Positions 63,413 through 64,000 of a DNA stretch of 64,000 nt are shown here, in pieces (position 1 is the stretch's first letter; the number at the start of each line of letters is the position of its first letter). Source of the DNA: Octopus vulgaris (Eukaryota); contig OX597828.1 of NCBI GenBank assembly GCA_951406725.2, positions 45,198,001 through 45,262,000 on the forward strand. The letters run 5' to 3'. A program made the translations under genes and the position numbers. The notes under the pieces were generated by a model, which was not told the DNA's origin, made no database searches, and saw nothing but the letters and a program-made list of their open reading frames with translations.

Positions 63413-63618
63413 TGTGAAATAGAAAGATGAATAATCTTGTAGCAGATTAATCAAAGGTTTAACCGATACCTTGGTAGCAAAAATCACAGCAGAAGACAGC
63501 ACGGTTGGAGGTACAACCATATGGTGTTGCAACCGTGCGTTGGTGCGGATAATTGAATTTAAATATTATTGGTGAATTGAAGAAATGGAGCTGAACGAAG
63601 ATTGAACAGAAATCGTTT

Positions 63619-63712
63619 TATTTCATTCTACACGTGTTTCGAAAGGCACAATTTACCAAAATCCGATTGAATAATGAGACCATATTGTGTCTTTCTCTTC
63701 AGGAAGAAAATA
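63619..63712 (-). ncRNA. Type I hammerhead ribozyme motif (left arm)
   Basis: Mirror copy of 63819-63911. Confidence 0.8.
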
Positions 63713-63818
63713 GGAAATCCGTTGGAAAAAACAAAAACAGAACAGAGGCGGAGCAAAACAAATCGAACTAGGCTCCTAAGAACCTCTGTTCTGTTTTTGT
63801 TTTTTCCAACGGATTTCC

Positions 63819-63911
63819 TATTTCTTCCTGAAGAGAAAGACACAATATGGTCTCATTATTCAATCGGATTTTGGTAAATTGTGCCTTTCGAAACACGTGT
63901 AGAATGAAATA
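63819..63911 (+). ncRNA. Type I hammerhead ribozyme motif (right arm)
   Basis: Stem I TATTTCTTC/GAA(T)GAAATA; CTGAAGA at 63828-63834; stem II GAAAGACACAAT/ATTGTGCCTTTC (11 of 12 paired); GAAA at 63890; palindromic ACACGTGT; GUA triplet (A at 63901). Confidence 0.85.
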
Positions 63912-64000
63912 AAACGATTTCTGTTCAATCTTCGTTCAGCTCCATTTCTTCAATTCACCAATTATATATATATATATATGTTTGTTTATCCACCACACAA

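Follow-up and report, generated by a model that had tools for sequence, protein, structure and literature searches.

Head-to-head hammerhead repeats in octopus DNA, probably a fold-back insertion of a Penelope-like terminal repeat

What kind of event places two nearly identical hammerhead motifs head to head, one on each strand, and does the arrangement serve the ribozyme in any way? The question is raised by the right-hand end of a 64,000-nt stretch of Octopus vulgaris DNA (the window), microsatellite-rich animal DNA in which a sequence-only reading had described a near-perfect 180-bp inverted repeat with arms differing by about one base. Alignment of the region to its own reverse complement bears this out. 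The inverted repeat is real, with a left arm of 181 nt, a right arm of 180 nt, and 34 nt between them, and the arms differ by 0 substitutions and one indel, the left arm having one base more in a short run of A near 63707. The interval 63560-63970 folds at -321.1 kcal/mol (z -38), and 0 of 100 shuffles were equally stable. Folding also places a 5-bp hairpin inside the spacer, adjoining the fold point. The sequence to the right of the (TA)n run that follows the right arm does not mirror the left flank.

The element exceeds the 63568..63962 interval in which it was first described, as contig depth shows family sequence extending leftward from 63567 at least as far as 63420. Words sampled from 63420-63782 were present, to at least half of their number, in 19 of the 24 runs listed (four coded organisms), and contigs of four public runs (X1, X2, and X3, which are DNA-type, and X16) were mapped onto 63420-63800. 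Between 63446 and 63770, most bins of X1, X2, and X3 reached a summed contig depth of about 1e5 to 1.6e6, a figure that is a sign of a very abundant family and not a copy number. Depth declines towards both edges, and in X1 it is lower at the outermost two bins of the 3' extension. Because depth is high across 63420-63567, the arm, and the spacer, all three belong to one very abundant family, most of whose contigs are at least 95% alike (1029 of 1196 in X1). In X1, X2, and X16 other family copies extend past 63781 with different letters, and beyond the 30 letters displayed, which marks a 5' truncation of the minus-strand copy at this point. Loose ends that join (TA)n at 63560-63563 in other copies (X2 and X3) correspond to the end used by the right arm. 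The family has alternative 3' ends, a short one at about 63563-63568, which the right arm shares with other copies, and a long one beyond 63420. The locus is a main copy on the minus strand, running from about 63782 to 63420 or slightly beyond and carrying the long 3' end, together with a shorter inverted copy that carries the short 3' end (Table 1). The outer end of the extension falls somewhere between about 63409 and 63420. Both copies end at (TA)n, of which the left-hand tract is likely the insertion target, and a target-site duplication is unreadable inside such a repeat.

Table 1. Positions of features at the inverted repeat, and of inverted copies in three related coding loci
Feature	Position	Strand	Basis or detail
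(TA)n microsatellite at long 3' end of main copy	63320..63408	.	Tandem Repeats Finder, period 2, 45 copies
3' extension of main copy (~150 nt), left-arm side only, family sequence rather than host flank	63420..63567	-	contig depth
Left arm, main copy, sense on minus strand	63568..63748	-	self-alignment and contig depth
Left hammerhead, core to H17	63629..63702	-	self-alignment, predicted dimer fold
34-nt spacer, further 5' part of main copy up to truncation point	63749..63782	-	family depth
Right arm, inverted copy, 5' end 34 nt shorter, ends at family's short 3' end	63783..63962	+	self-alignment
Right type I hammerhead	63819..63911	+	folds, Rfam below threshold, four-row alignment
Right stem I	63819-63827 with 63902-63911	+	3 bp, bulged U63905, 6 bp
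Right hammerhead core	63828-63834	+	
Right stem II	63835-63846 with 63878-63889	+	11 pairs and one A.C mismatch (63840/63884), 31-nt loop
Right GAAA	63890-63893	+	
Right stem III	63893-63900	+	loopless 8-nt palindrome
Predicted cut	after A63901	+	
(TA)n run at inverted copy's 3' end	63963..63979	.	sequence
Inverted ORF 3'-region copy, public metagenome contig L011	790-974 / 2821-3005		
Inverted ORF 3'-region copy, public metagenome contig L076	1-186 / 969-1154		
Inverted ORF 3'-region copy, public metagenome contig L029	1220-1311 / 1481-1572		

The head-to-head short copies are probably one dead insertion of the 3' terminal repeat of a Penelope-like element (PLE), the cDNA of which folded back and copied itself. 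A recent, inverted, Penelope-type insertion had already been proposed, and the layout, the dimer-type hammerhead discussed below, the (TA)n ends, and the abundant family of low divergence all agree with it. In such an event the element's endonuclease would nick the (TA)n target, and reverse transcription would begin at the long 3' end (about 63420) and halt early at about 63782. The cDNA end would then fold back, aided by the spacer hairpin and by 0-2 nt of microhomology at 63747-63748, and copy 180 nt of itself before the self-copied strand, ending at the short 3' end of the family, joined the target. The hammerhead would be a passenger from the terminal repeat of the parent. The arms agree at each of six sites that are polymorphic in the family (63598, 63623, 63652, 63668, 63677, and 63711), which points to a single template for both arms. 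The proposed microhomology requires one base, at 63782, that differs from the family majority.

Several of these steps have precedents. Self-priming on an antisense template was proposed from such junctions and left as a hypothesis (PMC3846280). In vitro, the endonuclease prefers AT-rich DNA, the tail results from two internal initiation sites, and hammerhead cleavage is protein-assisted and dispensable for insertion (PMC11167929). The published PLE scheme places an inverted 5'-truncated copy beside the 5' end and includes a tail confined to one end and (TA)n targets (PMC8557442), and a 181-bp inverted repeat that is 37 bp shorter than the direct one is on record (PMC3846280). The closest likeness is to the inverted pLTR units of EN+ PLEs (Penelope/Poseidon, Neptune, and Nematis; Pen2a_Av of Adineta vaga, PMC3846280; PMC8557442). 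Like the locus, these have a main copy whose 5' end is joined head to head by an inverted, 5'-truncated copy of about 180 bp that falls short of it by about 35 nt, with an extension at one end only, a small hairpin at the fold, and an AT-rich or (TA)n target. Their features recur here as a type I hammerhead with a palindromic helix III near the 3' end, a 5' truncation with an adjoining shorter, inverted copy of the 3' end, alternative 3' ends, and an AT-rich/(TA)n target at both outer ends as well as at the loose ends of the family. The locus differs in having no ORF between the repeats and in being truncated inside the terminal repeat. One point against PLE fold-back is the length of the one-sided extension, which is about 150 nt as compared with 30-40 bp for the tail of the published units.

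A stem-loop is predicted within the long 3' extension, at 63489-63553, where a subfamily differs by substitutions and a 1-nt indel. Given these differences the stretch is probably non-coding, and the predicted stem-loop could be a protein-binding or initiation hairpin.

It is tempting to go further and to read the junction as recording directly how cDNA folded back and primed itself at a family-encoded hairpin, with two discrete 3' ends about 150 nt apart, in a genome whose many near-identical copies would allow a statistical test of inversion origin and which would hold many perfect, self-silencing hairpins feeding Dicer or ADAR. We advance this fuller version tentatively and consider it doubtful.

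Alternatively, the family may be a non-autonomous PLE derivative, retrozyme- or SINE-like, about 360-400 nt long and without an ORF, that is mobilized in trans and in which the inversion arose likewise. Depth that stays very high and fairly uniform for about 360 nt and declines towards 63781 would suit such an element, as would the lack of any ORF linked to the family. Its length is within the retrozyme range (PMC7229834), and retrozymes have been proposed as PLE derivatives (bioRxiv 10.64898/2026.07.22.740005). Non-LTR retrozymes, as these two sources present them, share with the family a short, high-copy repeat with a type I hammerhead, and the locus has no ORF. Retrozymes, however, consist of head-to-tail monomers with hammerheads on the same strand, whereas no tandem copies are present here, and with hammerheads on opposite strands a single transcript can release neither a monomer nor a circle. 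Family copies also extend beyond 63781, and solo copies between (TA)n runs, an extended stem II, and a palindromic stem III fit PLE-type motifs. This origin is accordingly judged unlikely, and fold-back during insertion of a PLE terminal repeat is retained as the better account.

In contigs of the four runs no joint was listed at the fold-back junction, and depth across it drops from 1e4-1e5 to 34 or less (bin 63784-63796: 34 in X1, 18 in X3, and 0 in X2 and X16). The remaining depth in that bin was considered as confirmation of the junction and rejected, as it may stem from a few bases of other copies. Taken together, the missing joint and the collapse in depth argue against a multi-copy palindromic unit and neither confirm nor refute a single-copy junction. 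A MITE or palindromic unit would place the same inverted unit at many loci, and what the four runs contain instead is this collapse.

A fold-back artefact of sequencing or assembly would suit the lack of any joint or junction-spanning contig in the four runs, where depths of 34 and 18 in the junction bin can come from a few bases of other copies. The sole arm difference sits in a homopolymer, and the window ends 38 nt past the right arm. However, the mirror halts at a natural end of the family and leaves the left extension unmirrored, the spacer is asymmetric family sequence, and the layout agrees with published real insertions. Contigs lose rare forms, and about 80% of X1 and about 76% of X2 were read, so a missing junction proves nothing. 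We regard an artefact as very improbable. Comparably improbable is an inversion made after insertion, in which DNA repair or a replication template switch acted on a single copy, or a homogenization of two separate copies by conversion. Near-identical arms are compatible with any recent copying, and (TA)n runs flank the locus, but the right arm stops exactly where independent copies do, at the family's short 3' end and (TA)n. A halt at that point is not to be expected of host repair, which counts against this origin.

Turning to the ribozyme, the claim that each arm holds an intact core and a GUA site is upheld. Type I cores begin at 63828 on the plus strand (H17 is A63901) and at 63702 on the minus strand (H17 at 63629). 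The stems need some correction. Stem I does have nine pairs, but they are interrupted by a bulged U, and the 31-nt loop of stem II stands while its supposed 12 bp reduce to 11 pairs and an A.C mismatch. The description of each arm as a complete hammerhead fails, as it overlooked that stem III is a loopless palindrome that needs a second molecule. The motif is thus incomplete as a monomer and of the dimer type found in PLEs, with core, GUA site, and helices I and II in cis and helix III predicted in the dimer only.

Folding is in keeping with this anatomy. As a monomer, the hammerhead stretch folds unremarkably (z -0.26), with pair probabilities of 0.84-0.97 for stem II and 0.28-0.46 for a partial stem I. 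For two molecules of the right arm, the minimum free energy structure coincides exactly with the dimeric hammerhead, at -44.7 as compared with 2 x -15.9 kcal/mol, a gain that was matched by 3 of 100 shuffles. The left arm is likewise predicted to dimerize via the palindrome, yet part of its core is buried in another hairpin and stem I is absent. In the predicted dimer, the extra base of this arm favors the alternative hairpin over stem I. From these models, the hammerhead fold is predicted only for a dimer held together by the 8-nt palindrome. Among family contigs no core variant was listed at 10% or more, and those variants that are listed touch the stem II loop, the last pair of stem II, and outer stem I.

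Rfam gave no match at the gathering threshold in the entire window. The right arm alone aligned to positions 1-45 of Hammerhead_1 (RF00163) at 14.8 bits (E 0.64), where the gathering value is 34. A strict descriptor of core, stems, and palindrome, composed after the motif had been seen, found 4 sites in the window as compared with 1 in total over 200 dinucleotide shuffles. Hammerheads with a long stem II and a palindrome therefore fall under the Rfam threshold, with 4 sites in 64 kb and 0 reported. Rfam matches to miRNAs, also below threshold, were set aside as hairpin artefacts.

The closest counterparts are metazoan PLE hammerheads with a small palindromic helix III (PMC4209133), which share the type I topology, the intact core, G10.1-C11.1, the enlarged helix II, and a palindromic helix III for which dimerization is predicted to be required. 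In Schistosoma mansoni, cleavage was absent with a single motif and weak with dimers. Dual minimal hammerheads on opposite strands in S. mansoni, 100-700 bp apart, are reported in the same paper, and the opposite-strand cores here are 126 nt apart. In contrast to these metazoan motifs, the octopus sequence would form a longer helix II (11 bp with a 31-nt loop) and a 4+4 palindrome, with no unpaired base before G10.1.

The two descriptor sites outside the arms lie at 42713 (plus strand) and 13449 (minus strand). The first belongs to a solo copy at 42703-42835 (plus strand) that is related to the arm (score 119 as compared with a shuffled maximum of 72) and that retains stems II and III via six two-sided changes, as read from the alignment. 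When the four hammerheads were aligned without forcing, 11 of 19 pairs changed on both sides, a result matched by 0 of 500 shuffles and by 0-1 in slid controls; these four rows are only three independent sequences, and the structure was taken from one of them. The solo copy, a member of a related family, sits between (TA)n runs, begins at about the 5' edge of stem I, and has its 3' end in common with the arm. Membership of the arm's family is not supported for the hammerhead at 13449, whose score of 80 is below a shuffled maximum of 102. This third hammerhead (13330-13570, minus strand) has a different 8-nt palindromic stem III and ends at (TA)n. Older close inverted repeats, 76-81% identical, are present at 12648-12722 / 12858-12927, which adjoins (TA)n, at 8347-8658 / 8930-9249, and at 48003-48194 / 48666-48857.

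What would become of an RNA that read through both arms? The expectation that the hairpin would out-compete the catalytic fold is supported by the predictions. Read-through RNA is predicted to be locked as a hairpin (-321 as compared with -16 kcal/mol), and the probability of stem II in RNA spanning both arms is about 1e-45. It is 0.0 for RNA that starts at or left of 63680 and survives only if the start lies right of about 63690, with a mean pair probability of 0.93 for RNA starting in the spacer. The idea of a self-silencing switch does not hold, as a stem II probability this low, with the antisense arm transcribed first, leaves no balanced alternative fold. The nascent strand is paired before synthesis of the ribozyme is complete, which makes a lock and not a switch, and the partner ribozyme lies on the other strand, so that no dimer can form in cis. 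A selected regulatory device, whether a switch that alternates conditionally between hairpin and ribozyme or a palindromic element that is mobile as a whole, has next to no probability: the fold of spacer-started transcripts means that choice of start site could in principle set the structure, but stem II vanishes with starts at or left of 63680, the fall in depth shows that the junction is not multi-copy, and the search for a host exon or gene returned 0 Pfam families in 42 frames of 56000-64000.

A transcript across both arms, if made, would rather be a passive dsRNA substrate, according to the fold predictions. Use by the siRNA or ADAR machinery is plausible by analogy, as siRNA from inverted Penelope copies has been reported in Drosophila (PMC3681739) and a lizard's Penelope RNA has been reported as heavily edited (PMC5625713). 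Like these inverted Penelope copies and the hyper-edited Penelope and palindromic Harbinger repeats, the locus would yield a long, near-perfect hairpin that could serve as a Dicer or ADAR substrate if transcribed. X16 was considered as a sign of expression or editing and rejected; the family is present in it, but its designation as RNA was a guess, its contigs are strandless, and the sole A>G change listed also occurs in DNA runs. The share of 0.12 in run X20 was left out of account.

The head-to-head layout, the opposite-strand hammerheads, Penelope siRNA, and Penelope editing are all already in print, and the locus is an ordinary member of this group. Hammerheads and Penelope elements have also been counted in a squid (PMC6962438). 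No description of the repeat family was found in the consulted parts of the literature, and the supplements of PMC4209133 and PMC8557442 may list it or a relative. The locus alone is of little weight, being one dead copy among very many with a published layout. It is nonetheless a clean specimen, with near-identical arms, a visible fold point, and both 3' ends in view, from an abundant family. A genome-wide survey of junctions in so clean and abundant a family could test the self-priming model of PLE inversions, which is put forward as a hypothesis in PMC3846280.

The full-length RT/GIY-YIG parent that BLAST had been expected to find was not reached. Motif, protein, blastn, and tblastn searches revealed no RT or endonuclease ORF of the repeat family in the window and none linked to it. 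Likewise, blastn of the family against 77 RT-endonuclease loci gave no match. The upstream family motif is absent from the window, and its 2 bacterial matches among genome contigs were taken as chance; the core motif had 0 matches in metagenome and viral contigs. No relative was found for a 50-aa open frame across the left arm, Pfam had no match to the reading frames of 63420..63567, and in 16 hand-picked frames, mostly from the 169 listed, all Pfam matches were under the curated cut-offs.

Coding remnants of PLE type are nevertheless present elsewhere in the window. A decayed endonuclease fragment at 24549-25222 (minus strand) has 1553 relatives at E 0.001 or better in a full HMMER search, and a word search with it found nothing. 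Its long relatives contain RT motifs, a zinc-finger linker, and a GIY-YIG-type end, as read by eye. Pfam did not recognize the fragment and assigned no RT or GIY-YIG family to 6 of its relatives, and no names were attached to the six protein relatives looked up. With the best 150 of the 1553 relatives, tblastn gave no match near the inverted repeat. The zinc-finger linker, a trait of the Neptune clade (a label that follows the description in PMC8557442), was seen only in this fragment and its relatives, which are unrelated to the repeat family. Weaker PLE-type ORF fragments occur at 19276-19410 and 25683-26310. The former (minus strand) is a short, decayed endonuclease C-terminus amid microsatellites (best tblastn E 5e-4). 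The latter (plus strand) stands head to head with 24549-25222, about 460 bp away and with (TA)n between, both being decayed RT-thumb/zinc-finger/GIY-YIG fragments, and no DNA-level inverted repeat was listed between them.

The 77 loci, which are the best of 490 confirmed stretches fetched with an alignment of 12 relatives, encode RT-zinc finger-GIY-YIG proteins. In a separate scan of viral contigs with the protein alignment, 0 of 46 candidates were confirmed. A hammerhead of the kind seen in the arms, its stem III also palindromic, was found on the coding strand of 14 of the 77 loci, several of them near-duplicates, and on the opposite strand of 0 of 77. It lies 72-162 nt downstream of the stop in 8 of the 66 loci that have at least 150 nt after the stop. 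On the minus strand of the octopus locus, a stop at 63770-63768 precedes the core by 66 nt, near this range, but was left uncounted, as a stop is always to be found in one frame or another. In 3 of the 77 loci, the 3' region of the ORF recurs as an inverted copy, 92-186 nt long and 93-99% identical (Table 1). At one further locus, L078, a PLE-type ORF whose C-terminus ends at 4147 continues for about 300 residues into an unrelated domain with H...D and QxxxxDCG motifs, which we take to be typical of Ulp1-like cysteine proteases.
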